A stretch of DNA of 64,000 nucleotides from a virus (taxonomy: Duplodnaviria > Caudoviricetes), in the IMG/VR virus record IMGVR_UViG_3300021426_000001; one strand, 5' to 3'. Below, piece by piece: positions 7,618 to 39,950 of this stretch (positions within the stretch are counted from its first letter, which is position 1; each line of letters begins with the position of its first letter). Both the position numbers and the translations under genes were made by a program. The notes below the pieces were generated by a model, which had not been told where the DNA came from, did not search any database, and saw only the letters and a list, made by a program, of their open reading frames with translations.

Positions 7618-7646
7618 AATATAGGATTTTCTCAACAGTTTGTAAA
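7618..7646 (-). promoter_or_regulatory. early promoter
   Basis: TTTACA-17-TATATT; TTTTCTCAA/TTGAGAAAA inverted repeat. Confidence 0.75.
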
Positions 7647-7667
7647 CCCATATTTTGAGAAAACACC

Positions 7668-7697
7668 AAAAAAGCCGATCTGGGTTGCAGATCGGCT
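7668..7697 (-). terminator. intrinsic terminator ending the tRNA island
   Basis: AGCCGATC...GATCGGCT stem followed by T-tract on minus strand. Confidence 0.7.
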
Positions 7698-7735
7698 CAC
7701 GGAGTTATCGGAAATTTCTTCGGCTTTATCTTTCG

Positions 7736-7819
7736 TCCTCACGACAGGACTCGAACCTGTACCTCCTTGCGGAGAGCGGTCCCTGAAACCGCCGCGTCTA
7801 CCAATTCCGCCACGTGAGG
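7736..7819 (-). tRNA. tRNA-Leu(CAG)
   Basis: Cloverleaf, long variable arm, loop TTCAGGG. Confidence 0.9.
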
Positions 7820-7824
7820 AAATA

Positions 7825-7908
7825 TCTCCAGAGAGGGACTCGAACCCTCACGCCCTTTCGGGCACCAGCCCCTCAAGCTGGCGCGTCTACCAATTCCGCC
7901 ACCTGGAG
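7825..7908 (-). tRNA. tRNA-Leu(GAG)
   Basis: Cloverleaf, loop TTGAGGG. Confidence 0.9.
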
Positions 7909-7913
7909 TAAAA

Positions 7914-8048
7914 TCAAGATTCATTTGGATCGGACCGCTCCCTTTAACCACTTGGTTATCCCTCCCCGTATGGAGGGAGACAGGATTCGAACCTGCGAAG
8001 GCGCAATGCCAGCGGTTTTAGAGACCGTGAATTGCTGGATGAATCTTT
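7914..8048 (-). ncRNA. CAGCAA-stem RNA copy 1, carrying circularly permuted Tyr-like tRNA with CUA anticodon
   Basis: AAGATTCAT/ATGAATCTT terminal stem, CAGCAA; tRNA 3' half precedes 5' half. Confidence 0.75.
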
Positions 8049-8050
8049 AG

Positions 8051-8123
8051 CAGGGACTGAGAGGCTCGAACTCCCGACATGCAGTTTTGGAGACTGCCGT
8101 TCTACCAGCTGAACTAAATCCCT
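8051..8123 (-). tRNA. tRNA-Trp(CCA)
   Basis: Cloverleaf, loop CTCCAAA. Confidence 0.92.
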
Positions 8124-8379
8124 AAAAGTTATCTCATACGTTGATTTAGCGTTTGTTCTATTCCCATAGAACCGTTCAAGAGAATGTGACGAGCAGTTCT
8201 CTTTTTAGCATCGAACTACCAAGCTAACTATCTTGCTCCTGACTTAAATCTTTCATCAGTCCTCAGATAGCGTTTTTCCGATTTCCGTCAGGACCCAATG
8301 TCCTTCGATGGCATGTTGCAAAGGAGACCCACGTCGCTTCTAATGGTAATCTCATTTGCGCTTCATCGGGAAGCTTTAA

Positions 8380-8450
8380 TTGCCCGTAATGGAGTCGGAC
8401 CACTGCCAAGTGATTCAGAGTCACCTATACTACCGCTATACGAACGGGCA
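8380..8450 (-). tRNA. tRNA-Gln(CTG)
   Basis: Cloverleaf, loop CTCTGAA; T-loop variant TCCGA. Confidence 0.8.
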
Positions 8451-8457
8451 GAAAATA

Positions 8458-8529
8458 TCCCAAAGCAGAGAGTTGAACCCTGTCCAACAGCTTCACATGC
8501 TGTTATGCTACCGTTACACCACGTCGGGG
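8458..8529 (-). tRNA. tRNA-His(GTG), atypical acceptor
   Basis: Loop ATGTGAA; acceptor mismatch, no G-1:C73. Confidence 0.65.
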
Positions 8530-8537
8530 ATAAAAAG

Positions 8538-8610
8538 TAGTCCCAAGGGGAATCGAACCCCTATTACCGGATTGAGAGTCCAGCGTTCTAGGCCGTTAAA
8601 CTATGGGACC
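8538..8610 (-). tRNA. tRNA-Glu(CTC)
   Basis: Cloverleaf, loop CTCTCAA. Confidence 0.9.
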
Positions 8611-8615
8611 AAAAG

Positions 8616-8736
8616 TCAAGATTCCTTGTTAACTGGGCTCGAACCAGCGACCTCTCGTCTTTGCGACGAGCGCTCTACCAACTGAGCTACAATGCATAGA
8701 AATGGCTGCATAGGATAGAGTTGCTGAGGAATCTTT
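8616..8736 (-). ncRNA. CAGCAA-stem RNA copy 2 with tRNA-like D/anticodon/T cargo
   Basis: AAGATTCCT/AGGAATCTT stem, CAGCAA; GCTCAGTTGGTAGAGC D arm, GCAAA-looped anticodon arm, T arm, no acceptor stem. Confidence 0.7.
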
Positions 8737-8739
8737 TAG

Positions 8740-8810
8740 AGCGTCGTACCGGGGTCGAACCGGTGACCTCTGATTGGAAGTCAGAAATTTTACCGCTAAA
8801 CTAACGACGC
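8740..8810 (-). tRNA. tRNA-Gly(TCC)
   Basis: Cloverleaf, loop CTTCCAA. Confidence 0.88.
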
Positions 8811-8815
8811 ATAAA

Positions 8816-8900
8816 CGAGATAGAGTTGTCGGATTTGAACCGGCTTGCTTTGATTTTTTGATCATCATTGTGTATCCAAAGAATTTGCTGGATCTATCTC
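8816..8900 (-). ncRNA. CAGCAA-stem RNA copy 3 with T-arm cargo
   Basis: GAGATAGA/TCTATCTC stem, CAGCAA, GCCGGTTCAAATCCGAC T-arm-like hairpin. Confidence 0.65.
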
Positions 8901-8904
8901 TTAG

Positions 8905-8975
8905 AGCGCCTATCGGGAATCGAACCCGAAACTCCACCATGGCAAGGTGGCTTGTTACCATTACACTATAGGCGC
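8905..8975 (-). tRNA. tRNA-Gly(GCC)
   Basis: Cloverleaf, loop TTGCCAT. Confidence 0.88.
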
Positions 8976-8991
8976 GTATGTTTAATTTTAG

Positions 8992-9084
8992 AAGCGGGAC
9001 TGGGATTCGAACCCAGGGAGGGTAGGGTCACTACCCCCGACGGTTTTCAAGACCGCTGCAATAAACCAGCTCTGCCACCCCGCC
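8992..9084 (-). tRNA. tRNA-Ser(TGA)
   Basis: Long variable arm, loop CTTGAAA. Confidence 0.88.
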
Positions 9085-9243
9085 ATGACCAGCTTAAAGT
9101 TTCCTTCTATCCCTAAGCGTCGGGAGCTGATTGACTCATTCTTTTCAATAACTCTGCCTAGCAGAGAGTCTAGAATTTGAGACCTGTCGGACTTAGAACA
9201 TCACCTTCTGCAGCAGATGATGAACGAACTTCCGCGAACGTAG

Positions 9244-9332
9244 AGGCGGGTGCAGGATTCGAACCTGCGGGGCCTTTTTGGAGGCCCTTCTCGTTAGCAC
9301 CGAGACGGTTTAGACCACTCACCCAACCCGCC
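9244..9332 (-). tRNA. tRNA-Ser(GCT)
   Basis: Long variable arm, loop GTGCTAA. Confidence 0.88.
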
Positions 9333-9395
9333 ATAAAATAAAGCCGAAATTTCAATCTTCTGATCATCATCTCGGATGATCGATCTTAATATAGG

Positions 9396-9403
9396 TATTT
9401 ATA
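9396..9403 (-). promoter_or_regulatory. late promoter TATAAATA for tRNA sub-operon
   Basis: Exact motif upstream of leader motif and tRNA-Ser. Confidence 0.5.
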
Positions 9404-9451
9404 CCGAAGTAAAAATTCAACCAGTCGAATTTTATACCGAAGTCAAATTTG

Positions 9452-9564
9452 TCAAGATGTCATACTTATGGCTCCCGGGGTTGGAATCGAACCAACTTCT
9501 TCCGCATCAAGTGCGGTGCTCTCCTCTAGAGCTACCCTGGAAAAGAGTTGCTGTTGGCATCTTT
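9452..9564 (-). ncRNA. CAGCAA-stem RNA copy 4 enclosing a whole tRNA-like cloverleaf with CCA (9469-9541)
   Basis: AAGATGCCA/TGACATCTT stem, CAGCAA; cloverleaf with 5-nt anticodon loop CTTGA. Confidence 0.7.
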
Positions 9565-9583
9565 AGGAGAAGTTCTCCATTAG

Positions 9584-9667
9584 AGCTACCAGTAGGACTC
9601 GAACCTACGAAGGCTTGCGCCAGCAGTTTTGCAGACTGCTTCCTTTGCCGCTCGGATTCATGGCAGC
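9584..9667 (-). tRNA. tRNA-Cys(GCA) with long variable arm
   Basis: Loop CTGCAAA, U73, variable arm GGCGCAAGCC. Confidence 0.75.
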
Positions 9668-9678
9668 ATATTTGTTAG

Positions 9679-9752
9679 TCTTCCGCCCAGGATTCGAACC
9701 TGGATCAAGGGCTTCGTAGGCCCGTATGCTGAGTCCATTACACCAGCGGAAG
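9679..9752 (-). tRNA. tRNA-Arg(ACG)
   Basis: Cloverleaf, loop CTACGAA. Confidence 0.85.
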
Positions 9753-9765
9753 AAAAAATTAACTA

Positions 9766-9849
9766 TCGGGCCACGAGGAGTCGAACCTCTCCGCACCGCC
9801 CTGGATTTTAACGGCCCGGGTTATGAGTCCGGCCCAAGGTAATGGCCCG
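9766..9849 (-). ncRNA. D-arm-less tRNA-like RNA, anticodon CAT
   Basis: CGGGCCA/TGGCCCG acceptor, CTCATAA loop, T arm; D arm replaced by ~9 nt; enlarged variable region. Confidence 0.55.
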
Positions 9850-9866
9850 ATTCAGTCTTTAGTAAG

Positions 9867-10133
9867 TTATCGGCTGCTTCTTACGGACATTCTAGCTAGG
9901 TGCTGGAAGGTATTTCTCGCGTAGCCGTATTTCTGCCAGTTCTCACGTTCTACGCTGTTGTATGTGTTGTAGATGTGAGCGAAAGTGACTATCACTGGCA
10001 TCGGATCAATTCCTCTTTGACGACGAACCTGAAGCTGATAGTTGAGCATATCTTCGATCTCTTGGCGTCTCTTGTCAGTCTCAGATTTATTGAGCTTGAA
10101 GAGTTTTACTTCTTCTTTCATAAAGTTCTCCAT
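9867..10133 (-). CDS. hypothetical protein within tRNA island
   Basis: 88-aa ORF exactly filling a gap between tRNAs. Confidence 0.55.
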   Translation of the reverse strand: MENFMKEEVKLFKLNKSETDKRRQEIEDMLNYQLQVRRQRGIDPMPVIVTFAHIYNTYNSVERENWQKYGYARNTFQHLARMSVRSSR

Positions 10134-10144
10134 TTTGAAGTTAG

Positions 10145-10228
10145 TCCCCGCGACAGGACTCGAACCTGTACGTCCTTTCGGACACCTGATCCTAAGTCAG
10201 GCGCGTCTACCAATTCCGCCACGTGGGG
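10145..10228 (-). tRNA. tRNA-Leu(TAG)
   Basis: Loop CTTAGGA, long variable arm. Confidence 0.9.
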
Positions 10229-10236
10229 AAATATAG

Positions 10237-10309
10237 TGGGGCCCCTCGGAGTCGAACCGAGATCTCCGGATTTTCAGTCCAGCGCATTGACCACCTCTGC
10301 CAGAGCCCC
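10237..10309 (-). tRNA. tRNA-Phe(GAA)
   Basis: Loop CTGAAAA. Confidence 0.9.
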
Positions 10310-10314
10310 AAAGA

Positions 10315-10444
10315 TCAAGATAACATTTCTTAGGAAGCCGAGTCCTGAACCACTAGACGATGGACCCCATACGGATCCAGCTGGATTCGAACCAGCGTTA
10401 CGGCCTTGGGATTTAAGAAAAGATAAATTGCTGTTGTTATCTTT
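10315..10444 (-). ncRNA. CAGCAA-stem RNA copy 5, carrying circularly permuted Glu/Asp-type tRNA body
   Basis: AAGATAACA/TGTTATCTT stem, CAGCAA; order T arm, acceptor closed by a loop, D arm. Confidence 0.75.
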
Positions 10445-10452
10445 TAAGAGTT

Positions 10453-10522
10453 TCAAGATCCGTCTTTTCAACGTAGTCTGATTACCAATCGGATGTTGTA
10501 AGTGATTTGCAGTATGGATCTT
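10453..10522 (-). ncRNA. CAGCAA-stem RNA copy 6 with Thr(GGT)-like anticodon hairpin
   Basis: AAGATCC/GGATCTT stem, CTGCAA; TCCGA-TTGGTAA-TCAGA. Confidence 0.65.
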
Positions 10523-10527
10523 ATTAG

Positions 10528-10602
10528 TCTCCCCTCAGGGATTCGAACCCCGGTTTTGCCTGTTTGTAAGACAGGTGCCATAACCAGCTAGGCGAAGGAG
10601 AG
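10528..10602 (-). tRNA. tRNA-Val(TAC)
   Basis: Loop CTTACAA. Confidence 0.88.
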
Positions 10603-10745
10603 ATATGGACCTCTCATTCAGTTTCCCAAATGTGTACATAGAAGTCCAGCCAGTTTTCCATAAGCCCGAGCCCAGATTGAACTGGCAGAAACAGGTTCCT
10701 CGAGCATCACGACTTCTTTCATCCGTAGGACAAGAGAAGCGTTAG

Positions 10746-10819
10746 TCCTCATCCCTGGACTCGAACCAGGAACCTCCGCCTTATCAGAGCGAAGCGCTAA
10801 CCAATTGCGCCAGATGAGG
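10746..10819 (-). tRNA. tRNA-Ile(GAT)
   Basis: Loop CTGATAA. Confidence 0.9.
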
Positions 10820-10831
10820 ATAGAATATTTA

Positions 10832-10905
10832 TGGGAGTACCGAGACTCGAACTCGGATCCACAGATTAAGAGTCTGCTCGTCTAAACCGATTGACATATA
10901 CTCCC
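10832..10905 (-). tRNA. tRNA-Lys(CTT)
   Basis: Loop CTCTTAA. Confidence 0.88.
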
Positions 10906-11017
10906 GAAACACGAATGAGATGAAGATGATGTGTGAGATCCATCGATCTCCAGCTCAAACAATTTAGTTAAACTTGCGTTAGTAAACTCTTTTTCAAGTT
11001 AGTAAACTTCTGTTTCG

Positions 11018-11091
11018 TCCCGGTAGATGGATTCGAACCAACGACCTGCGGATTATGATTCCGTCGCTCTGACCAGCTGAGCTATACCGGG
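11018..11091 (-). tRNA. tRNA-Met or Ile2 (CAT)
   Basis: Loop ATCATAA; elongator-type body. Confidence 0.85.
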
Positions 11092-11159
11092 CTAAATTCC
11101 ACTGGCAGTTTGTGAGATACTGCCTAAACTCCTGAGGGCTACCTCAGAAAGCTAAAATC

Positions 11160-11233
11160 TCAAGATAGAGTGGCCTTACGCCACGAGCCTCAAAGAAATG
11201 GTGAAGTTGGTTGTGATTTGCTGTATCTATCTT
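11160..11233 (-). ncRNA. CAGCAA-stem RNA copy 7
   Basis: AAGATAGA/TCTATCTT stem, CAGCAA. Confidence 0.65.
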
Positions 11234-11240
11234 AAAAGTG

Positions 11241-11346
11241 AAGAGCGATCTCCCTCGAACTCGTCGCAGTAGCTAGTCATCTAATTCGAAGTGTTGCAGG
11301 AGGTGTGTTAGGACTATCGGCCGCGAACAGCCTCCGAGTTGCTCTT
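11241..11346 (-). ncRNA. candidate three-way-junction RNA
   Basis: Stems AAGAGC/GCTCTT, GGAGG/CCTCC, CTTCGAATT/AGTTCGAGG. Confidence 0.45.
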
Positions 11347-11348
11347 AG

Positions 11349-11423
11349 TAGTTCCATCCGGTGTCGAACCGGATTCTCCTGGTTGAAAACCAGACGACCT
11401 AAACCAACGTAGTCTATGGAACC
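11349..11423 (-). tRNA. tRNA-Glu(TTC)
   Basis: Loop TTTTCAA. Confidence 0.85.
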
Positions 11424-11434
11424 AAAATGTTTAG

Positions 11435-11563
11435 CGCCAGACGGAGGAATCGAACCTCGTTTCCGTTTCATTGCAACTTCGACGGACTTTTGATCGAGAA
11501 GCACCAACGTATCAGCATCGCCGAAGTGTTGCAACCTCCATTGACGCCTATCTCGCATCCAGC
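11435..11563 (-). ncRNA. tRNA-like RNA (acceptor and T arm) with long internal hairpin
   Basis: GCTGGATG/CGTCTGGC, GAGGTTCGATTCCTC, TTGCAACACTTCGGCG/CGTCGAAGTTGCAA. Confidence 0.5.
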
Positions 11564-11573
11564 ATAAAGAGTT

Positions 11574-11644
11574 TCAAGATGGTGGGGCTAACCCCAGAAT
11601 TCGAATTGCAGGCGAATGATTTTGAGAATCGCTGAACCATCTTT
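11574..11644 (-). ncRNA. CAGCAA-stem RNA copy 8
   Basis: AAGATGGT/ACCATCTT stem, CAGCGA variant. Confidence 0.6.
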
Positions 11645-11648
11645 TTAG

Positions 11649-11721
11649 TAGCGCCATCGGGATTCGAACCCGAGTTCCATGAATGAAAATCATGTGTCCT
11701 AGGCCTCTAGACGATAGCGCC
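11649..11721 (-). tRNA. tRNA-Glu(TTC)
   Basis: Loop TTTTCAT. Confidence 0.9.
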
Positions 11722-11730
11722 ATAATTTAG

Positions 11731-11807
11731 TAGCGGGTCCGGGAGTCGAACTCCGGTATCTCAGAGGTTATGAGCCTCGAATGGTATATCCGTTCCACTC
11801 ACCCGCG
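11731..11807 (-). tRNA. tRNA-fMet-like (CAT)
   Basis: Starts CGCGGG, unpaired 1:72, loop CTCATAA. Confidence 0.75.
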
Positions 11808-11894
11808 ATAAAACCGGTGGAATTGAAGGTTAGAAGACCTATGACGTCGTGCCTTCAGTTCGATCAATTCCCTTGACCTATTAGTCTTTGTCCT

Positions 11895-11968
11895 TGGCTC
11901 CTACCGGATTCGAACCGAATGTCTGCCGTCTTCTCGACGGCCGTCCTAGTCCACTAGACGAAAGAGTC
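11895..11968 (-). ncRNA. tRNA mimic, Glu/Asp-type body, anticodon loop replaced by GAGAA
   Basis: GTCTAGTGGACTAGGAC D arm; GCCGTC-GAGAA-GACGGC; T arm. Confidence 0.55.
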
Positions 11969-11994
11969 AATTTCGTGACCGTAAGTCAAATTAG

Positions 11995-12068
11995 TCGGGC
12001 ATGCAGGATTCGAACCTGCGACATCTTGCTCCCAAAGCAAGCGCTCTACCAGACTGAGCTAATGCCCG
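11995..12068 (-). tRNA. tRNA-Pro(TGG)
   Basis: Loop TTTGGGA. Confidence 0.92.
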
Positions 12069-12069
12069 A

Positions 12070-12600
12070 AAATGGAAAGAAACGTTTAACTTCCCGTGTC
12101 CTCGACTACCTCATCCGAGACCTAGTCTCAGAGCCCAATTAGCGGCAGTGTTGAACTTTTCTCGACCTGGGTCTTGGGAACCTAGGCGAACGAATTTTGG
12201 TTTAACCCTTTCGAGATGGACTTATGAAGGTAATGCCCTCGCCTTCTCTATTCAGGGATTCATATCGGCGTTCGGACTCTCACCGAACCTATTTCTTGGA
12301 ATTCCTTGACCAGCGATATGATCAGTCCGACCGTTGACGAAATTGCTGGGATTTCGCGCCCAGCCCGATCGGATTTTTGACAGCACTACGGATCTCACGT
12401 AGATCTTTACCCACCTATGGTCTGTTTCGGCAGCAGAACTGCCAAAGAGTAACCGCCCTATACTTAAACCCTCTAGAAAAGCTTGTTCTAGGACTTGCCT
12501 ATCGTCGTCCCTGTCTCAATCAGACTCGAACTGATTTCTCTGCCACGATTGACAGCGTCTTTATCCGGAAGACCTTTTTGACAGTTTCTATTGTCAGCCG
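12070..12600 (-). ncRNA. candidate large structured ncRNA (~530 nt)
   Basis: No credible ORF; many hairpins with T-loop-like loops between tRNA-Asn and tRNA-Pro. Confidence 0.55.
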
Positions 12601-12604
12601 TTAG

Positions 12605-12677
12605 CTGTCCCACCAGGACTCGAACCTGGGACTAAGGCATTAACAGTGCCCTGATCTACCAACTGATCTATGGGACA
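12605..12677 (-). tRNA. tRNA-Asn(GTT)
   Basis: Loop CTGTTAA. Confidence 0.9.
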
Positions 12678-12748
12678 ATAGAAAAATTAAAGCCGAAATT
12701 TCAATTTGCGGATCCTTCTCTCGGAAGGTCTCTTATTTTGATGTTCAT

Positions 12749-12777
12749 AATATAGAAAAGAATTTGCGGTTCGTAAA
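12749..12777 (-). promoter_or_regulatory. early promoter with A-rich UP element for tRNA operon
   Basis: TTTACG-17-TATATT; phased A tracts upstream. Confidence 0.7.
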
Positions 12778-12858
12778 CCCTTTTTCTTAAAAATTTTTGA
12801 ATTTTTTTGAAAAAGTTCTTTTCCGTAATGATCATCATCACAGATTTAGTGATTTTAG

Positions 12859-12931
12859 CGCTGGAAGAGGGAATCGAACCCCCAACCGCCTGATTACAAA
12901 TCAGGTGCTCTACCTATTGAGCTATTCCAGC
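12859..12931 (-). tRNA. tRNA-Thr(TGT)
   Basis: Loop TTTGTAA. Confidence 0.9.
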
Positions 12932-12959
12932 AGAACGTGAGCTTATTGACCTCGTCACT

Positions 12960-13037
12960 TCGGAAATGCTGGAATCGAACCAGCGTCTTCTGCCCACTGG
13001 GGTGCAGCTTCACTTGGCCTTGCTATGATAACTCCCG
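12960..13037 (-). ncRNA. tRNA mimic or pseudo-tRNA, Pro-type acceptor, aberrant anticodon arm
   Basis: CGGGAGT/ATTTCCG, T arm GCTGGTTCGATTCCAGC, no U33 loop. Confidence 0.5.
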
Positions 13038-13145
13038 ATCAAAGGGTTTATCTCACGTAATTTCAATAGCGCTGGAACCAAGAGTCGGAAGAATTATCTC
13101 GAGACTTCTTCCTCCAGTCAGTTCCTCCATGAATCAATTTTCCAG

Positions 13146-13215
13146 CCGATCAACCAGGATTCGAACCTGAATGCGGACAGTCACGCCCTCGCTCTACCAG
13201 TTGAGCTACTGACCG
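13146..13215 (-). ncRNA. tRNA mimic or pseudo-tRNA with 6-nt anticodon loop
   Basis: Intact D arm GCTCAACTGGTAGAGC and T arm; GGGC-GTGACT-GTCC. Confidence 0.5.
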
Positions 13216-13241
13216 AACTGGGCCATATCATCATGAACTAG

Positions 13242-13315
13242 TGGAGACGATGAGAATCGAACTCATCACAGAATCCTTGCTAAGGACTCTCGCCGCCTTG
13301 GTAACATGCATCCCC
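13242..13315 (-). tRNA. tRNA-Ala(AGC)
   Basis: GGGGATG/CGTCTCC with G3:U70, loop TTAGCAA. Confidence 0.75.
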
Positions 13316-13321
13316 AAAATT

Positions 13322-13380
13322 TCAAGATCCGTTTTTATTCTGCCAAAATAGAATGTTTGTAGAGTTGCAGTATGGATCTT
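13322..13380 (-). ncRNA. CAGCAA-stem RNA copy 9
   Basis: Ends identical to copy 6 (AAGATCCATACTGCAA...ACGGATCTTG), different cargo hairpin. Confidence 0.65.
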
Positions 13381-13385
13381 TTTAG

Positions 13386-13471
13386 TGCCTAGTGAAGGAT
13401 TCGAACCTTCAAAGCCCGTTAGGGCGGGAGATTTACAGTCTCCTGGTGATCACCATCCCACCAGACTAGGC
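13386..13471 (-). tRNA. tRNA-Tyr(GTA)
   Basis: Loop CTGTAAA, long variable arm. Confidence 0.88.
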
Positions 13472-13827
13472 GTGTTCTCACGGATCGACGTTGCCATCTT
13501 TATAGACGCTCCGAATAGATTTCGTCTTTACGATCGGACATATTGAGAGGTTACTTCCGACTGACCTTTCCCAGAACAGGATTGGTGGAAAGAAAGTGAA
13601 TTGAAACAGAATCAAAGCCCGTCCAGTTTGCTTATGCCTGTGCTCTCCACTGGATCGTGTCATCCTTACTCCATCTTACCTTTGCGCGTTTTTCAGATGG
13701 GCTTCAGAAGATCAACCGAGCTCTGCCCTCCATGAGATCTCAACGGCGGAGTAAACAGTGCATACGGTAGCGGTTCAAGACTGTCAAAGTCAATCTCTTG
13801 AAGCCGTTTCTCTTCATTTTCTAGTAG

Positions 13828-13901
13828 CGATACCTGAGAGATTCGAACTCTCGAATGTCGGTTAGACAGACCGATGTGTTTGGCCACTTCACCAAGGTAC
13901 C
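13828..13901 (-). tRNA. tRNA-Asp(GTC)
   Basis: Loop CTGTCTA. Confidence 0.85.
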
Positions 13902-13913
13902 AAAAATTTGTAG

Positions 13914-13984
13914 CGGTCTCAACGGGTCACGATCCCGTATCTTCGGCGTGACAAGCCGATATTCATCCATTAAACTATGAGACC
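13914..13984 (-). tRNA. tRNA-Asp(GTC)
   Basis: Loop TTGTCAC; atypical T-loop ATCGTGA. Confidence 0.75.
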
Positions 13985-13998
13985 AAAATATAGTGTAG

Positions 13999-14071
13999 CG
14001 CTGGAAGAGAGACTTGAACTCCCAACCTTCTCATTACGAAAGAGTTGCGCTACCAATTGCGCCATTCCAGC
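13999..14071 (-). tRNA. tRNA-Thr(CGT)
   Basis: Loop TTCGTAA. Confidence 0.88.
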
Positions 14072-14172
14072 AATTGTTAAATGGTGGCAGATTGCCTCCT
14101 CCTCAGTCATGCCTAGGAAACCTTGGGAGACAAGATTAAATCCAATGATGATCAATCATTAACTGCCTTTAG

Positions 14173-14245
14173 TGCCTCAAGAAGGACTCGAACCTTCAAC
14201 CCACTGATTAAGAGTCAGCTGCGCTACCAATTGCGCCATTGAGGC
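14173..14245 (-). tRNA. tRNA-Lys(CTT)
   Basis: Loop CTCTTAA. Confidence 0.9.
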
Positions 14246-14264
14246 ATAAAGAAAAAGAAGTTTG

Positions 14265-14375
14265 CGATTGATGATGGGCGATTCGAACCTCCCACCTCCA
14301 CCTTGGATCCAGTGGCGCTCTTCCGTGAGGTCCCTGTCTTTCGACTGGCAGTTTCCTCTAAGCTAATCAAGAATC
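14265..14375 (-). ncRNA. degenerate tRNA-like RNA with ~40-nt structured insert in D loop
   Basis: T-loop GTTCGAATC, GCTT/GAGC D stem around GTCGAAAGAC hairpin. Confidence 0.35.
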
Positions 14376-14615
14376 ACTTGACGAAATTTCCAGACTTACT
14401 AGATCATCCAGACGCTTCGTCCATTTTCTTTTTTGTAGATCGATCTCACCGTGATGACCCGGCAGGTCACGGTCCTTGCTATATCCTTCCTCACAGTTAT
14501 GATACCGTGAACAAGGTGCTTGTCTAAGACATCAGATATACTAAGATCAGTTCCAGACTTGTACTTCGCTTGGGTTGCTGGTCGTTTCAACCTGACTCGT
14601 TCTTGATCGATTTAG

Positions 14616-14689
14616 TGGACACAGACGGGAGTCGAACCCGTGATCTCCTGAGTGCAAATCAGGTGCCTTACCAACTAGGCTACTGGCCC
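14616..14689 (-). tRNA. tRNA-Ala(TGC)
   Basis: Loop TTTGCAC. Confidence 0.8.
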
Positions 14690-14762
14690 AAAATTTAAGA
14701 AAAGCCGTTTTGTTAAGTTGCAGATCTTATTCTCGATAGGATCTTGTTTTGTTGATGATTCA

Positions 14763-14791
14763 AATATAGATAAAAGTATTTGAGTCGTAAA
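14763..14791 (-). promoter_or_regulatory. early promoter with UP element
   Basis: TTTACG-17-TATATT; upstream A tracts nearly identical to 12780-12812. Confidence 0.7.
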
Positions 14792-14837
14792 CCCCTTTTC
14801 TTAAAAATTTTTGAATTTTTTTTGAAGAGAGGTTTTA

Positions 14838-14910
14838 TTGGGCAGGACGGATTCGAACCGCCGATCCCGAGTTCAAAGCCCGGAGCCTTAACCAACTTGG
14901 CTACTGCCCA
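14838..14910 (-). tRNA. tRNA-Gln(TTG)
   Basis: Loop CTTTGAA. Confidence 0.9.
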
Positions 14911-14916
14911 GTGCTA

Positions 14917-14990
14917 TGACCGAAGAGAGATTCGAACTCTCGCTTGTGGGATTTTAAGTTCCGTGCCTCTGCCAGTTGGGCTATTCGGCC
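14917..14990 (-). tRNA. tRNA-Leu(TAA), short variable loop
   Basis: GCCCAACTGGCAGAGGC D arm, loop CTTAAAA. Confidence 0.75.
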
Positions 14991-14996
14991 AGAAAG

Positions 14997-15164
14997 TTAG
15001 TAGTCGTAAGTTTCCTTCTCGACTTTCTTCTCTCGGACGACCTTGATGCCCGACTGTCTCGCCATAGACTTAGCGAGCTTACGGCACTGATTCCAGCGCT
15101 GTTCGTTCATAGCTCTGATCTCGTCTTGGCTTAATTGTTGCTTTTTGCTCTTTTCTTTGATCAT
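14997..15164 (-). CDS. small basic hypothetical protein (55 aa)
   Basis: MIKEKSKKQQLSQDEIR... with GGAG RBS between tRNAs. Confidence 0.55.
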   Translation of the reverse strand: MIKEKSKKQQLSQDEIRAMNEQRWNQCRKLAKSMARQSGIKVVREKKVEKETYDY

Positions 15165-15197
15165 CGGATTTCTCCAAAAGTTGTTTGTGTTTATTTA

Positions 15198-15269
15198 TGG
15201 GTCAACCGGGACTCGAACCCGGACCCGAAGATTAAAAGTCTCCTCGACTACCAATTATCATATTGACCC
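15198..15269 (-). tRNA. tRNA-Lys(TTT)
   Basis: Loop CTTTTAA. Confidence 0.85.
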
Positions 15270-15273
15270 GTAG

Positions 15274-15346
15274 TACCCAACCCGGGAGTCGAACCCAGAT
15301 TAGAGGTTTAGAAGACCCCTGTTCTATTCCATTGAACTAGTCGGGC
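15274..15346 (-). tRNA. tRNA-Arg(TCT)
   Basis: Loop CTTCTAA. Confidence 0.88.
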
Positions 15347-15353
15347 AGAAGTT

Positions 15354-15662
15354 CTACTTCTTGGCGCTGAGATCGCGGATCTTCTTCAGATCGAACTTCA
15401 TAGCCGGGTAGATGCAGAACCCAGATTGACCAAAGCGTTCAATCGGTTTTGCGAGCCCAGCAGATTCGAGCTGCTGATCCAAGTCAGGCCAGTTGTTCGT
15501 ATCGACGAAAGCTTCGTCAGATCCGAGCTTCTCAGACTGTCCCTCCAGATAGATGGTGCAGACTCCGTAAGTAGAGCCATCTTTGTTGTTAGCCATGACG
15601 GCGAGGGTGTTGCCGTATTCATAGCGTGAGCGGACGAGGTCCAGAGATTTGATACTCTTCAT
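15354..15662 (-). CDS. DUF4313-like protein
   Basis: AFVDTNN and SGFCIYPAMKFD motifs. Confidence 0.65.
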   Translation of the reverse strand: MKSIKSLDLVRSRYEYGNTLAVMANNKDGSTYGVCTIYLEGQSEKLGSDEAFVDTNNWPDLDQQLESAGLAKPIERFGQSGFCIYPAMKFDLKKIRDLSAKK

Positions 15663-15696
15663 TTTAATTTGATCCTGTTGAAGTTGAACAGATTTG

Positions 15697-16044
15697 TTAG
15701 TTGATTCCTAGGAGCTTGTCGAAGTCCTTGAGGTGCTCCGGCTGTTCCTTGTATTCATAGCGGTCAGCGCAGACAGAAGTTCCGAGCCAGGTCTTCATGT
15801 TGTTGGTCCACCAAGAGTCGCCGTCCACGTAGTCATAGCGTTTCGGGTAGCGGTGAACCTTGTCATAGAGATCCTTCATGAACTTCTCCCCCTCTTCGAC
15901 AGAAGAGACTTCCACTTCCACGCAGTCATCTGGGAACCAAGCTCCGACAGAAGTGAACTTAGCAGTCGGATTGAGCGCCTTAGCAGCTTCCGTGATTTCC
16001 TTGTAAGCGTGAGTGTTGCCGATGAATACGACTCTGAATTTCAT
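15697..16044 (-). CDS. hypothetical protein
   Basis: ORF after early promoter 16076-16104 with AAGGA RBS. Confidence 0.7.
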   Translation of the reverse strand: MKFRVVFIGNTHAYKEITEAAKALNPTAKFTSVGAWFPDDCVEVEVSSVEEGEKFMKDLYDKVHRYPKRYDYVDGDSWWTNNMKTWLGTSVCADRYEYKEQPEHLKDFDKLLGIN

Positions 16045-16075
16045 GATCAATTCCTTGTTGAAGTTTTACATAATC

Positions 16076-16104
16076 AATATAGGTATTTATGTCGATTTTG
16101 TAAA
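16076..16104 (-). promoter_or_regulatory. early promoter
   Basis: TTTACA-17-TATATT. Confidence 0.7.
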
Positions 16105-16125
16105 CCCTCTTTTGAAGAATTTTAG

Positions 16126-16198
16126 TCAGCGTAAGAGGATTCGAACCTCCGACCTCGCCGCCCCGAACGGTGCGCTCTACCAGCTGAGCTATACGCTG
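16126..16198 (-). tRNA. tRNA-Pro(CGG)
   Basis: Loop TTCGGGG. Confidence 0.88.
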
Positions 16199-16209
16199 AA
16201 ATGATGTAG

Positions 16210-16283
16210 CTGGGAGGGCAGGACTCGAACCTGCAACATCCTGGTTAACGGCCAGGCGTTCTACCGATTAGAACTACGACCCA
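16210..16283 (-). tRNA. tRNA-Asn(GTT)
   Basis: Loop CCGTTAA; acceptor mismatch. Confidence 0.75.
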
Positions 16284-16294
16284 ATGAAAATTAG

Positions 16295-16368
16295 TGGAAA
16301 CGGTGGGAATCGAACCCACCACAGCCTGATTGCAAGTCAAGCTCGCCTCCTTGGTAACATGCATCCCC
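16295..16368 (-). tRNA. tRNA-Ala(TGC)
   Basis: G3:U70, loop CTTGCAA; same unusual 5' end as 13242 copy. Confidence 0.8.
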
Positions 16369-16377
16369 ATAAGATAG

Positions 16378-16450
16378 TCAGCGTAGCGGGATTCGAACCC
16401 GCGATCTCATGATCCCAAATCATGCGACTTACCAGCTAGCCTATACGCTG
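16378..16450 (-). tRNA. tRNA-Pro(TGG)
   Basis: Loop TTTGGGA. Confidence 0.88.
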
Positions 16451-16459
16451 ATTATATAG

Positions 16460-16534
16460 TCGATCGGGAGGGATTCGAACCCATCACTTTGCAGGTTTTG
16501 AATCTGCTGCCTCTGCCAGTTGGGCTACCGATCG
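16460..16534 (-). tRNA. tRNA-Leu(CAA), short variable loop
   Basis: Loop TTCAAAA, Leu-type D arm. Confidence 0.75.
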
Positions 16535-16604
16535 AAAAGATAAAGCCAAATTGTCAAACATCTGATGCGCTTCTCGAGCGAACCATTTTAGATCTTCTCA
16601 AAAT

Positions 16605-16632
16605 AAAAGAGGAAGTCTTTGTGACTTCCTCT
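16605..16632 (-). terminator. intrinsic terminator after leader ORF
   Basis: AGAGGAAGTC-ACAAA-GACTTCCTCT-TTT. Confidence 0.75.
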
Positions 16633-16660
16633 CGTTCTCCTTCAAAGATCGGATTGGAAG

Positions 16661-16798
16661 TCAACTTAGCGGATCTGCTGGCTTGATAGCATTGAATCTT
16701 GGATCAATTGCTCTCAAGTCGAGATTTTGACCGCAATATTCGCGAACTGCCGGTGTGGCCGGTGCGAAAGATTTGAATGTTGTTGCGGTCAGTGCCAT
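16661..16798 (-). CDS. putative leader peptide (45 aa)
   Basis: MALTATTFKSFAPATPAVREYCGQNLDLRAIDPRFNAIKPADPLS; AAGGA RBS, TATAAATA at 16818-16825. Confidence 0.55.
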   Translation of the reverse strand: MALTATTFKSFAPATPAVREYCGQNLDLRAIDPRFNAIKPADPLS

Positions 16799-16892
16799 TG
16801 TTGTTATCCTTTTGTATTATTTATACACGTTAAATATATAAATTTTTTGCTTTTTCCGCAGATTTTTTGAAAAAATTTGCAGATTTTTTTAG

Positions 16893-16965
16893 TAGTCCCG
16901 GGCGGAGTCGAACCGCCGTTTCTGCCTTGAGAGGGCAATGTCCTAGGCCACTAGACGAAGGGACC
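16893..16965 (-). tRNA. tRNA-Glu(CTC)
   Basis: Loop CTCTCAA. Confidence 0.9.
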
Positions 16966-16976
16966 AAAATTTGTAG

Positions 16977-17050
16977 TAGCGCCATCGGGACTCGAACCCG
17001 AATTTCCAGCTTGAGAGGCTAGCGAACTGAACCAGTTATTCGATAGCGCC
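16977..17050 (-). tRNA. tRNA-Glu(CTC)
   Basis: Loop CTCTCAA. Confidence 0.88.
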
Positions 17051-17149
17051 ATATTGAGTACAGTTTCATTCTTTTACGGCTACCCGCCGTAGCGGACCGA
17101 GGAATGCTCACGCCAAGCAGAAACTGAAAAACAATAACCGCGTGTGTAG

Positions 17150-17223
17150 TGATCCGAGCAGGATTCGAACCTGCGACCTGATGCTTAGAAGGCATCTGCT
17201 CTATCCAGCTGAGCTATCGGACC
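17150..17223 (-). tRNA. tRNA-Arg(TCT)
   Basis: Loop CTTCTAA. Confidence 0.92.
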
Positions 17224-30965: not shown

Positions 30966-32159
30966 TTACGGCAAGAAGTGTTCTGAGACCTTAGTCCAGT
31001 ACTGTTCCGTCATTTCACGGACTCTCTTGCCAAATTCGGGACCGGGCTTGACGCCCTCTTTGAAGACGAGATCAGAGATCTTCTTCGTGTCGGGCTGGAA
31101 GCCCTTAGCCATTCTGAGCGATACTGGAATCGTCCAGAGCCATTCGGTCTTGTTCTGCATGATAGCGAGAACCGTTCTGTAGTCGCTGCTCACGATCTTG
31201 ACGAGTTCAGTCCAGGAGGGACGAGAGCCATATTGCAGGACGTAACGAGCCCACCTGTAGAACTTGTAGAGTCTCTTTTCATCGTTCGTCATTGTGAGCT
31301 CGGCTTCTGCATTAGCGATGTCGTCGTAAGCGAGAGCCATGACTGCGAAGACGTTGTCGTTTCTCAGATCTGAAACCAAGAGACTGTTTTCGAAAGCAGC
31401 CGTGAAGTTCATGTGTCTGAAGATCGGAATGTGCTTAACGAGATCCATCTGGTCGATGAACTGAAGGAATGTAGAGAGACCGTAGTTCTTCTTGTTGAGA
31501 GAAGTGATCTCCTTGCGGAAGCGTTCGTTAGAGATCTTGCAGAGACCTGGACCAGCGATGTTCATAGCGAGCTTCGTATCTGGATCGATCGTGAAGCCGA
31601 AGTTCGTGGCGAATCTGATGCCGCGAATGATGCGGAGAGCGTCTTCGGAGAAGCGTTCAATCGGATCGCCGACAGCTCGAATGACGCCGTTCTGAAGGTC
31701 AGCGAGACCGTTCATCGGATCGATCAAGTTGCCGTCACCGTCAAGGCCCATAGCGTTGATAGTGAAGTCGCGACGAGCGCAGTCTTCAGCGAAAGTCTTA
31801 GCGAAAGTGACCGTGTCTGGATGACGACCGTCAGTGTAGTTGCCGTCCTGACGGAACTGAGTCACTTCGAACGGATCCCCCATGCCGTAGAAGACGAGCA
31901 GAGTGCCGTGAGCTTCGCCGTTGTTAGATTCAGTTCGGAAGATCTCCTTGATCGTCGGCATCGGCATGTTAGTTGCGATGTCCACGTCGTGAATGTCGAG
32001 CATGCCAGGAATCGGAGAGATGCCGAGCTCAGACATCACGATGTCTCGAACGCAGCCGCCAACCACGTAAGCTTCGAAGCCGAGTCTACGGATTTCACGG
32101 CAGAGTTCCATGCCGCAGTGAAGAGCGTCTGAAGGGATGTGGTTAGTTTCAAATTTCAT
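30966..32159 (-). CDS. cca: tRNA nucleotidyltransferase (CCA-adding/poly(A) polymerase family)
   Basis: VGGCVRD, DVDIAT, RRDFTINAM, EDALRIIRGIRF. Confidence 0.9.
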   Translation of the reverse strand: MKFETNHIPSDALHCGMELCREIRRLGFEAYVVGGCVRDIVMSELGISPIPGMLDIHDVDIATNMPMPTIKEIFRTESNNGEAHGTLLVFYGMGDPFEVTQFRQDGNYTDGRHPDTVTFAKTFAEDCARRDFTINAMGLDGDGNLIDPMNGLADLQNGVIRAVGDPIERFSEDALRIIRGIRFATNFGFTIDPDTKLAMNIAGPGLCKISNERFRKEITSLNKKNYGLSTFLQFIDQMDLVKHIPIFRHMNFTAAFENSLLVSDLRNDNVFAVMALAYDDIANAEAELTMTNDEKRLYKFYRWARYVLQYGSRPSWTELVKIVSSDYRTVLAIMQNKTEWLWTIPVSLRMAKGFQPDTKKISDLVFKEGVKPGPEFGKRVREMTEQYWTKVSEHFLP

Positions 32160-39610: not shown

Positions 39611-39950
39611 ATTTAGTCTCCTGTTTGCATTCTCAATATAGGTAAATCTTCAGTGTTTGTAAATATGAAGTCTAAAAATTTTAGTAATTTTAGTTCGACA
39701 TCAAAGTCGTAACGCTGGAACGAAGCGCAACTCAATGCTGCTATCGGTAAGCGTGCGCCGTTCGCTAGTGAGCTCCTCTAGCATGAATGAACGAACATGG
39801 AGCATCGAAGCAGAAGAGTAGCGTCTTCTGCACACAGCCGCCATTAGCGCCTGAAGATGTAGCTGGAATACAGGATGACCGATCCATAAGCTTCAGGGTG
39901 AGTCTACTCTAAAAGGTCGACGGGCGAAGGAGTCAGCAAAAGACGTTCTT

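Follow-up and report, generated by a model that had tools for sequence, protein, structure and literature searches.

A permuted tRNA-Glu-like RNA in a phage tRNA array belongs to a family of Y-like RNAs that occurs with a divergent, predicted Ro60-fold protein

The element at 10443-10317 and its structure

The DNA analysed here, called the window throughout, is a 64,000-nucleotide (nt) stretch from a virus of the Caudoviricetes (IMG/VR record IMGVR_UViG_3300021426_000001). Its minus strand carries a very large tRNA array (7735-17223) with 45 genes, of which 43 are reported by ARAGORN and two, overlooked by ARAGORN, by Rfam (8626-8696 and 9472-9541). Our subject is a 127-nt element between two of these tRNA genes, at 10443-10317 on the minus strand. 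It belongs to a family of Y-like RNAs, widespread in phages and so far undescribed, that occurs together with a divergent protein of predicted Ro60 fold. The window proteins include a CCA-adding enzyme (30966-32159), a terminase-like ATPase, a thymidylate-synthase homologue and many small open reading frames (ORFs) without a family, and judged by their sequences they point to a large phage.

An initial annotation of positions 10315-10444, made by a model from the letters alone, had described a permuted tRNA with the topology of the bacterial RNA YrlA. All of the motifs that it listed are present on the minus strand, and the unconstrained minimum free energy (MFE) and centroid folds agree with each other and give exactly its structure (-36.9 kcal/mol, z = -2.2). 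Numbering the element from window position 10443 as index 1, the ends are joined by a 9-base-pair (bp) terminal stem, in which the 5' strand AAGAUAACA (index 1-9, 10435-10443) pairs with the 3' strand UGUUAUCUU (index 119-127, 10317-10325) in the MFE fold; with the conserved G that follows it, the 3' side extends over 10316-10325. Directly after the 5' strand comes a 14-nt bulge, ACAGCAAUUUAUCU (index 10-23, 10421-10434), with a conserved ACAGCAA whose CAGCAA core (10428-10433) stands out by motif enrichment. The terminal stem and this motif make up what we call the handle, which in the element reads AAGAUAACA-A-CAGCAA ... AAGAAAU-GUUAUCUU-G.

The handle encloses a tRNA-like body in permuted order. 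An extension helix, with 5' strand UUUCUUA (index 24-30, 10414-10420) paired to 10326-10332, takes the place of the anticodon loop, and is followed by a 7-nt bulge, AAUCCCA (index 31-37, 10407-10413), which direct comparison finds as (A/U)UCCCA(A) in the Glu-like family members L036, L062 and L010. The 3' strand AGGCCG of a split anticodon stem (index 38-43), identified by compensatory changes, and a variable region UAAC (index 44-47) occupy 10397-10406. Next in the MFE fold are a T arm, GCUGG-UUCGAAU-CCAGC (index 48-64, 10380-10396), a closed acceptor hairpin of 7 bp with a 5-nt loop and no CCA, UGGAUCC-GUAUG-GGGUCCA (index 65-83, 10361-10379), and U8-C9 with a D arm, GUCU-AGUGGUUCA-GGAC (index 84-102, 10342-10360), which is of Glu type by its match to tRNA-Glu. 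The body ends, again in the MFE fold, with U26 and the 5' strand CGGCUU of the split anticodon stem (index 103-109), then CC and the 3' strand UAAGAAA of the extension helix (index 110-118; together 10326-10341). The predicted topology was thus sound: the MFE fold, like a global alignment to the YrlA model, places the T arm, a closed acceptor-like stem and the D arm in the YrlA order, with the ends on the anticodon side.

When the two halves are re-joined, their best match is to the phage's own tRNA-Glu genes, and the tRNA elbow is preserved, with U8, GG in the D loop, G15 with C48 and the T loop UUCGAAU all in place. The re-joined halves give no 7-nt anticodon loop with U33, as the anticodon stem in the MFE fold runs on into the bulged helix. 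With no anticodon loop, and with the acceptor end closed by a loop, neither charging nor decoding is possible for the RNA as transcribed. The body is a circularly permuted tRNA-like structure derived from Glu, and the element is most likely not a working tRNA gene. Anticodons hidden in the bulges were considered and rejected, since both UCCCA as an anticodon-like loop and a CCU/CUU loop after re-joining are inconsistent across homologues. An integron- or transposon-like DNA cassette was also rejected, because matching core sites are lacking and the covariation is what an RNA stem would show.

On the minus strand, the order is tRNA-Val, a neighbouring handle RNA, the element and tRNA-Phe, which starts 7 nt past the element's handle. 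There is no promoter or terminator in between, so the ends of the element are probably made by processing of the neighbours. The sequence itself is secure. The window matches a 262,403-bp metagenome contig in ENA at 100.000% identity across 11,253 nt, and two JGI metagenome contigs (L063 and L064) contain the element and its flanks, 161 nt in all, at 100% identity. Identity in these further independent assemblies puts read support for the element beyond question, and the assembly artefact that the initial annotation wished to exclude is not found.

General searches place the element in no known family. Megablast of its region against 50,697 phage records gives no match, and a distant blastn search gives T-arm matches to ordinary tRNAs and nothing else. 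At gathering thresholds, an Rfam scan reports tRNAs and the cow-rumen-2 motif alone, and permissive scans show no ribozyme or other family on the element. The cow-rumen-2 motif itself lies elsewhere, as a clean match on the plus strand (39804-39910; RF02947, 98.3 bits, E = 1e-17), and fits a rumen phage origin.

Handle RNAs in this and other phages

The handle family was defined by a terminal stem of 7-10 bp starting (A/U)AGA(U/C), the motif C(A/U)GC(A/G)A at 0-3 nt from the 5' strand, an A-rich 3' side and a G following the 3' strand; the element's handle fits this definition. A pattern combining a handle with a T loop occurs at 36 loci in IMG/VR, many of them on contigs of 140-362 kb, and the bodies at these loci are mostly permuted tRNAs of several tRNA types. 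We compared 137 distinct handle elements. All have the C-A/U-G-C-A/G-A motif, which was also a search criterion; the G after the 3' strand, found in 124 of the 137, and the A-rich 3' side were not used as criteria. In the literature searched, no paper was found that describes a CAGCAA handle or a permuted tRNA cargo in phages.

The closest relatives of the element are three further Glu-like members (L010:1648, L036:2010 and one on L062), and comparison with these shows that pairing is conserved while sequence is not. The split anticodon stem has changed in a compensatory way, from CGGCU/GGCCG in the window to CAGCU/AGCUG (L010), CGGCC/GGCUG (L036) and CAGGC/GCCUG (L062). The helix that replaces the anticodon loop has four different sequences in the four Glu-like members and is paired in all of them. 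Their acceptor stems are unrelated in sequence and perfectly paired in three of the four, that of L062 being degenerate. More broadly, a perfect closed acceptor of 7 bp is present in 20 of 27 related permuted elements, as against 4% in shuffles. The permuted set contains 13 distinct acceptor stems and 16 distinct T stems, and the T stems are all paired. Loss of pairing in homologues had been named in advance as grounds for abandoning the permuted structure; instead, the helices differ in sequence and still pair. The proposal that selection rather than accident keeps this arrangement is likewise strongly supported, with homologues in many phages and covarying helices.

In the window, the motif AAGAT-N5-CWGCRA occurs seven times against 0.33 expected, with six occurrences inside the array on the minus strand. 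Eight window elements, the one at 10443-10317 included, have the frame AAGAU-N(2-5) / N(2-5)-AUCUU-G, with C(A/U)GC(A/G)A just past the 5' strand. All lie on the minus strand. The first of them, copy 1 (7916-8047, recognised by end pairing), carries a permuted type-II Tyr-like (CUA) tRNA body. The handle RNA at 8618-8735 (end pairing) shows another permutation, in the order acceptor hairpin, D arm, anticodon arm and T arm, and the one at 9454-9563 (motif and end pairing) is built around a tRNA-like body in normal order, whose CCA is encoded and whose anticodon loop has 5 nt. Four others have short cargos: 10455-10522 (68 nt, end pairing), which is 11 nt upstream of the element; 11162-11233 (72 nt, motif and end pairing); 11576-11643 (68 nt, a CAGCGA variant, end pairing); and 13324-13380 (57 nt, a CUGCAA variant, motif and end pairing). 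A probable ninth member at 8816-8900, found by eye and missed by the strict pattern, has a GAGAU/AUCUC stem variant, CCAGCAA and a T-arm-like hairpin.

The initial annotation had compared the element with copy 1, and was right that the two derive from different tRNAs, Glu here and a type-II Tyr-like tRNA there. Its further claim, that both use the same permutation point, does not hold. The element is opened in the anticodon loop, which is replaced by the conserved helix; copy 1 keeps the option of a whole anticodon hairpin, CUCUAAA, or alternatively of a junction-closing stem, the 5' strand of this stem being present twice. Elsewhere in the family the opening lies at 26/27, within the anticodon stem, or at the border of T arm and acceptor. 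Since the cargo differs from one window handle RNA to the next, the conserved unit is the handle and not one permutation point.

Several cargos deserve a separate remark. The 5-nt anticodon loops are CUUGA in 9454-9563 and GCAAA in 8618-8735, and 9454-9563 is the only handle RNA in the window with an encoded CCA; a similar member in normal order, also encoding CCA, is found at L036:6419-6548. A handle RNA from another phage (L018:2989-3107 and L029:5146-5278) has a tRNA-like body in normal order with the anticodon loop AUUUAAA, whose anticodon UUA is ochre-suppressor-like. In the handle RNAs at L020:7318-7408 and L030:4672-4763, the cargo is only an anticodon-arm-like hairpin (CUGCAAA and CUGAAUA, respectively) together with a T arm, acceptor and D arm being absent, which shows that partial tRNA bodies are carried as well.

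A DUF2828/DUF7788 protein linked to the handles

The contig that contains the window also encodes the candidate partner of the handle RNAs, a DUF2828/DUF7788 protein of 499 amino acids (aa), 29 kb past the end of the window (L059:7314-8813). Its gene is preceded, in order, by a ligase of the T4 Rnl1 type, a TTTACA/TATAAT promoter, a 54-nt handle and a Shine-Dalgarno sequence. This handle in the 5' untranslated region, AAGAUGG-UAACAGCAA ... CCAUCUU-GA, is here called the leader handle. The same order, with a nearly identical leader handle, is seen in L028, the closest relative.

An AlphaFold (AF2) model of the protein from an 11-sequence alignment (pLDDT 79, pTM 0.66) has two halves, one built of helical repeats and one of vWA type with a DxSGS site. 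When the model is compared with the PDB using Foldseek, the top 13 matches are all full-length Ro60/TROVE structures (from phage phiLo, Xenopus, human and D. radiodurans), at E values of 1.4e-8 to 1.8e-5, with PDB entries 9KOP and 9L5Y as the best; unrelated vWA domains come after these, only at E above 1e-3. By this model, the phage genome encodes a Ro60-fold protein. A search of the window with the DUF2828-family hidden Markov model, filters off, gave nothing (best E 0.78). The window's large unannotated ORFs (451 and 473 aa) were also considered as the Ro60-like protein and set aside, having no Pfam, PHROG or PDB-sequence match and no similarity to ORF86 of phage Felix O1. That protein lies just upstream of the Felix O1 tRNA block and is DUF2828+DUF7788 by Pfam, and the Felix O1 array contains stem-plus-CAGCAA elements.

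The association between handles and protein extends well beyond this phage. At least 517 viral contigs encode a DUF2828/DUF7788 relative, and we used the strict handle pattern to search 5 kb on either side of the gene in the best 80 DUF2828 loci. The search found 66 handles on the strand of the gene, in 42 of the 80 loci, compared with two on the opposite strand and four in shuffles; 17 handles are at most 150 nt upstream of the gene. Conversely, a DUF2828/DUF7788 ORF lies inside 11 of the 36 short handle loci, and all three near-complete carrier genomes encode the protein. The leader copies argue for a link of the handle with the protein itself, beyond a shared association with tRNA arrays; the strongest case is the present genome, in which about 76 kb separate gene and array.

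The Ro60-like gene lies within an RNA heal-and-seal set on the same contig, 29-40 kb past the window (L059:2500-7157 and L058:10286-11584), consisting of a metallophosphoesterase, a P-loop kinase of the AAA_33/KTI12 type, the T4 Rnl1-type ligase and a separate Rnl2-type ligase. A Tad3-family protein (PF25185) is encoded at L059:14033-14743. A general link between the handle system and Rnl1 was considered and rejected, as Rnl1 adjoins the gene only here and in L028 and is within 5 kb of it in none of the 80 other loci.

The tRNA array contains further unusual features on its minus strand. Promoter-like boxes, GGGTTTACA/G ... N17 ... TATATT, recur near 7640-7700, 9380-9440, 12720-12790, 14700-14760 and 15350-15400, and their sequences suggest several transcription units within the tRNA region. 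A 535-nt gap without tRNAs (12069-12603) is predicted to be highly structured (-160 kcal/mol) and has no Rfam match. Two odd tRNA-Ala-like genes (13239-13315 and 16292-16368) share the 5' end GGGGAUGCAUGUUACCAAGG and a G3:U70 pair, and have long anticodon stems, loops UUAGCAA and CUUGCAA, and an atypical D region; ARAGORN misses both, and their Rfam scores as tmRNA-like are weak (23.9 and 22.1 bits).

Interpretation and comparison with known systems

The interpretation that we regard as probable, with real room for doubt, is that the element is a Y-RNA analogue: a partner RNA of the phage's Ro60-shaped protein, made of two modules and acting as a tether or decoy. It would be a stable, small non-coding RNA from the phage tRNA operon, released by ordinary tRNA processing of its neighbours. 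The first module is the handle, with its 9-bp stem (the first five pairs, AAGAU/AUCUU, being conserved in sequence), the CAGCAA bulge on the 5' strand, the A-rich 3' side and the following G. By analogy with the terminal stem and CGAA bulge by which Y RNAs are bound by Ro60 (PMC4201824, PMC12135203), the handle would be the binding site of the DUF2828/DUF7788 protein. The second module, the cargo, is the mimic derived from tRNA-Glu, in which the elbow and the 7-bp acceptor helix are retained. It may present a tRNA-shaped surface to factors that recognise tRNA, such as processing and repair enzymes or host defence nucleases that target tRNA, and could thereby gate the Ro60-like ring or tether it to such enzymes, or else act as a decoy for tRNA-directed host defences. 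The 7-bp acceptor makes cleavage by RNase P conceivable, as for the YrlA of M. smegmatis, and the leader handle may serve autoregulation of the Ro60-like protein. To the structure, the covarying conservation, the family, the genomic link and the modelled Ro60 fold, this reading adds two inferred steps: physical binding of the handle by the protein, and the tethering or decoy role.

A number of observations weigh against a Y-RNA analogue. One group concerns YrlA itself. The search with the YrlA model that had been suggested as a check came out divided. The model (RF02553) aligns globally, over its positions 1-114, with the modules in the same order, but the score is far under the gathering threshold (16.1 bits compared with 69; E 0.54 on a 181-nt slice), and in an 11-kb scan there is no match at E of 10 or below. 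The defining motif of YrlA is GNCGAA(N)G (PMC4201824); the GNCGAAN0-1G (CGAA) motif is absent from the element, whose 5' side is ACAGCAAUUU and whose handle motif is CAGCAA. Pfam finds TROVE in none of the 11 window ORFs of at least 300 aa, and in none of four carrier genomes (two of them complete, with controls responding correctly), where RtcB is likewise absent. Because the score is 16.1 against 69 bits, the GNCGAA motif is missing and no TROVE match is found by sequence, the element is not a member of the YrlA family by that family's defining sequence features. It is YrlA-like in topology and probably in role. As for the partner, TROVE was the wrong thing to search for, because the candidate protein is DUF2828/DUF7788.

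A second group concerns that protein. In sequence-profile comparison, Ro60/TROVE chains rank first but weakly (E 0.27-1), and the gene is far from the array in this genome. One carrier record, G004 (58% complete), shows no DUF2828/DUF7788 protein. There are tRNA genes within 5 kb in 61 of the 80 loci, and the proximity of handles to the gene may partly reflect a common location in tRNA arrays. The link to RNA repair, seen as Rnl1 adjacency here and in L028 only, is lineage-specific. Finally, the binding of the handle is inferred from genomic association, and the stable RNA is itself predicted from sequence.

Among the alternatives, the one that survives best, though we consider it unlikely, is a free-standing decoy or sponge for tRNA-targeting nucleases or tRNA-binding enzymes, acting without the Ro60-like protein and with a handle that merely stabilises its ends. 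In phages, tRNA regions can counter defences that cleave tRNA (PMC11555353, PMC13096335), the tRNA elbow is intact in the element, and the cargos of the family include Tyr-like bodies and isolated hairpins resembling anticodon stem-loops. However, a handle needed only for stability leaves unexplained why its first five pairs, the CAGCAA bulge and the trailing G should be conserved in sequence across very different phages, and why a handle stands in the DUF2828 leader at 17 of the 80 loci, and here far from the array. Moreover, the Glu-like cargo has no anticodon loop, which is the usual target of anticodon nucleases.

It is quite improbable that the handles are processing punctuation, that is, cleavage signals of RNase III or RNase E type, with a decaying tRNA pseudogene as cargo. 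The elements do lie between tRNAs in one transcription unit without intervening promoters or terminators, and several cargos are short and weakly structured; yet a stem of 7-10 bp is short for RNase III, and a leader copy on an mRNA far from any tRNA does not fit. Nor would pseudogenes be expected to keep their cargo helices by compensatory change across distant phages, retain the tertiary partners of T loop and D loop, or have perfect closed acceptors in 20 of 27 cases.

A genuine circularly permuted tRNA gene is very improbable. Here the ends would be ligated, the acceptor loop opened by RNase P and 3' trimming, and CCA added to give a working tRNA. The gene order, with the 3' half ahead of the 5' half, is as this scheme needs, and the activities have candidates: the 7-bp acceptor stem is the main determinant of recognition by RNase P (PMC4201824), a CCA-adding enzyme is encoded in the window, and Rnl1 and Rnl2 ligases, which are common in big phages, are on the same contig. 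Some other family members also retain a complete anticodon hairpin. Against this, joining the ends of the element would yield no decoding tRNA, as the Glu-like members have a covarying 7-bp helix where the anticodon loop would be. Five ordinary tRNA-Glu genes (ARAGORN) are already present in the phage, the Glu-like homologue on L062 lacks most of the acceptor stem, and the same handle surrounds short non-tRNA cargos and stands in the mRNA leader of the protein. The probability that misassembly or a chance rearrangement of a single tRNA gene produced the element is negligible: such an origin has nothing in its favour beyond the unusual gene order, and is refuted by three identical independent assemblies and by permuted homologues in dozens of other phage contigs.

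The Y-RNA analogue can be extended, tentatively and with considerable doubt, to a modular phage ribonucleoprotein system. One ring protein would be shared by RNAs with a universal stem-plus-CAGCAA handle and interchangeable tRNA-shaped cargos (variously permuted, anticodon-disabled or bare anticodon-arm mimics), each aimed at a different tRNA-recognising enzyme or defence, with autoregulation through the leader handle.

Particles of Ro60 and Y RNA have been described in animals, in some bacteria and in a small number of phages. The handle RNAs and the DUF2828/DUF7788 protein would be a second, sequence-unrelated version of this design that appears far commoner in large phages, with handle RNAs beside the gene in about half of the sampled loci. 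Phage T4 likewise has two small RNAs, RNA C and RNA D, which are encoded in its tRNA gene cluster, are stable and have no known role. For annotation, the present family is a warning: an 'odd' or overlooked tRNA in a phage array may in fact be a Y-like RNA.

The nearest known RNA is YrlA, the partner of Ro60/Rsr in bacteria and mycobacteriophage (RF02553; PMC4201824). As in YrlA, a terminal stem pairs the ends next to a conserved bulge motif, the tRNA mimic has the order T arm, closed acceptor-like stem and D arm, and a protein of Ro60 fold (here a modelled one) is encoded in the same genome; the 7-bp acceptor stem is shared with the YrlA of M. smegmatis. The differences are the CAGCAA in place of GNCGAA(N)G, with 16 bits where 69 are needed; a candidate partner that is DUF2828/DUF7788, with TROVE undetectable by sequence and the gene not adjacent; and the occurrence of the element as one of at least eight, probably nine, RNAs with a common handle and varied cargo.

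Two phage systems invite comparison through their proteins. In Thermus phage phiLo, a phage Ro60-fold protein, phiRo60 (9L5Y, 9KOP), is accompanied by phage RNAs, Yrl1 and Yrl2, and binds RNAs built of a stem and a CGAA bulge (PMC12135203). The combination of protein and stem-plus-bulge RNAs is the same as here, but phiRo60 is a canonical TROVE protein, and its RNAs have CGAA, directly precede the gene and have not been reported to be permuted tRNAs. TROVE proteins have also been listed among the RNA-repair genes of jumbo phages (Iyer et al., PMC7824862). In the Felix O1-like phage Bas63, a Ro60-shaped protein encoded upstream of the tRNA block, gp130, is reported to counter the Ppl defence; its authors speculate that some Bas63 'tRNAs' are Y RNAs and name no partner RNA (PhageMaP preprint, PMC11482910). 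The gp130 protein belongs to the same protein family as the protein described here (the Felix O1 homologue being the DUF2828+DUF7788 protein ORF86), with its gene at the tRNA block. No defence phenotype is known for the rumen phage. The handle RNAs thus offer concrete candidate partners for a protein family that a knockout screen has tied to defence evasion.

A more distant resemblance is to the Class I RNAs of Dictyostelia (PMC7919456), which have a short, covarying stem joining the ends, a conserved AAG start and CUGU-type end, a conserved 11-nt motif beside the 5' strand and a variable remainder. The resemblance is one of architecture, and Class I RNAs differ in being eukaryotic, 42-65 nt long, without tRNA-like cargo and bound by a known RRM protein, Rnp1A. 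If the likeness were homology, eukaryotic DUF2828 proteins would be the missing partners of Class I RNAs.

The permuted tRNA genes of Cyanidioschyzon merolae and other algae, and two-piece tmRNA genes, resemble the element in that the 3' half, with the T arm and the acceptor 3' strand, is encoded upstream of the 5' half, with the acceptor 5' strand and the D arm, and a short linker joins the two. These mature into working RNAs by cutting of the linker (in the tRNAs, with end-joining at a bulge-helix-bulge), whereas the element has no anticodon loop, tag-coding part or bulge-helix-bulge motif. The spread of permutation points in the handle RNAs is a natural experiment from which the important parts of the tRNA shape could be learned.

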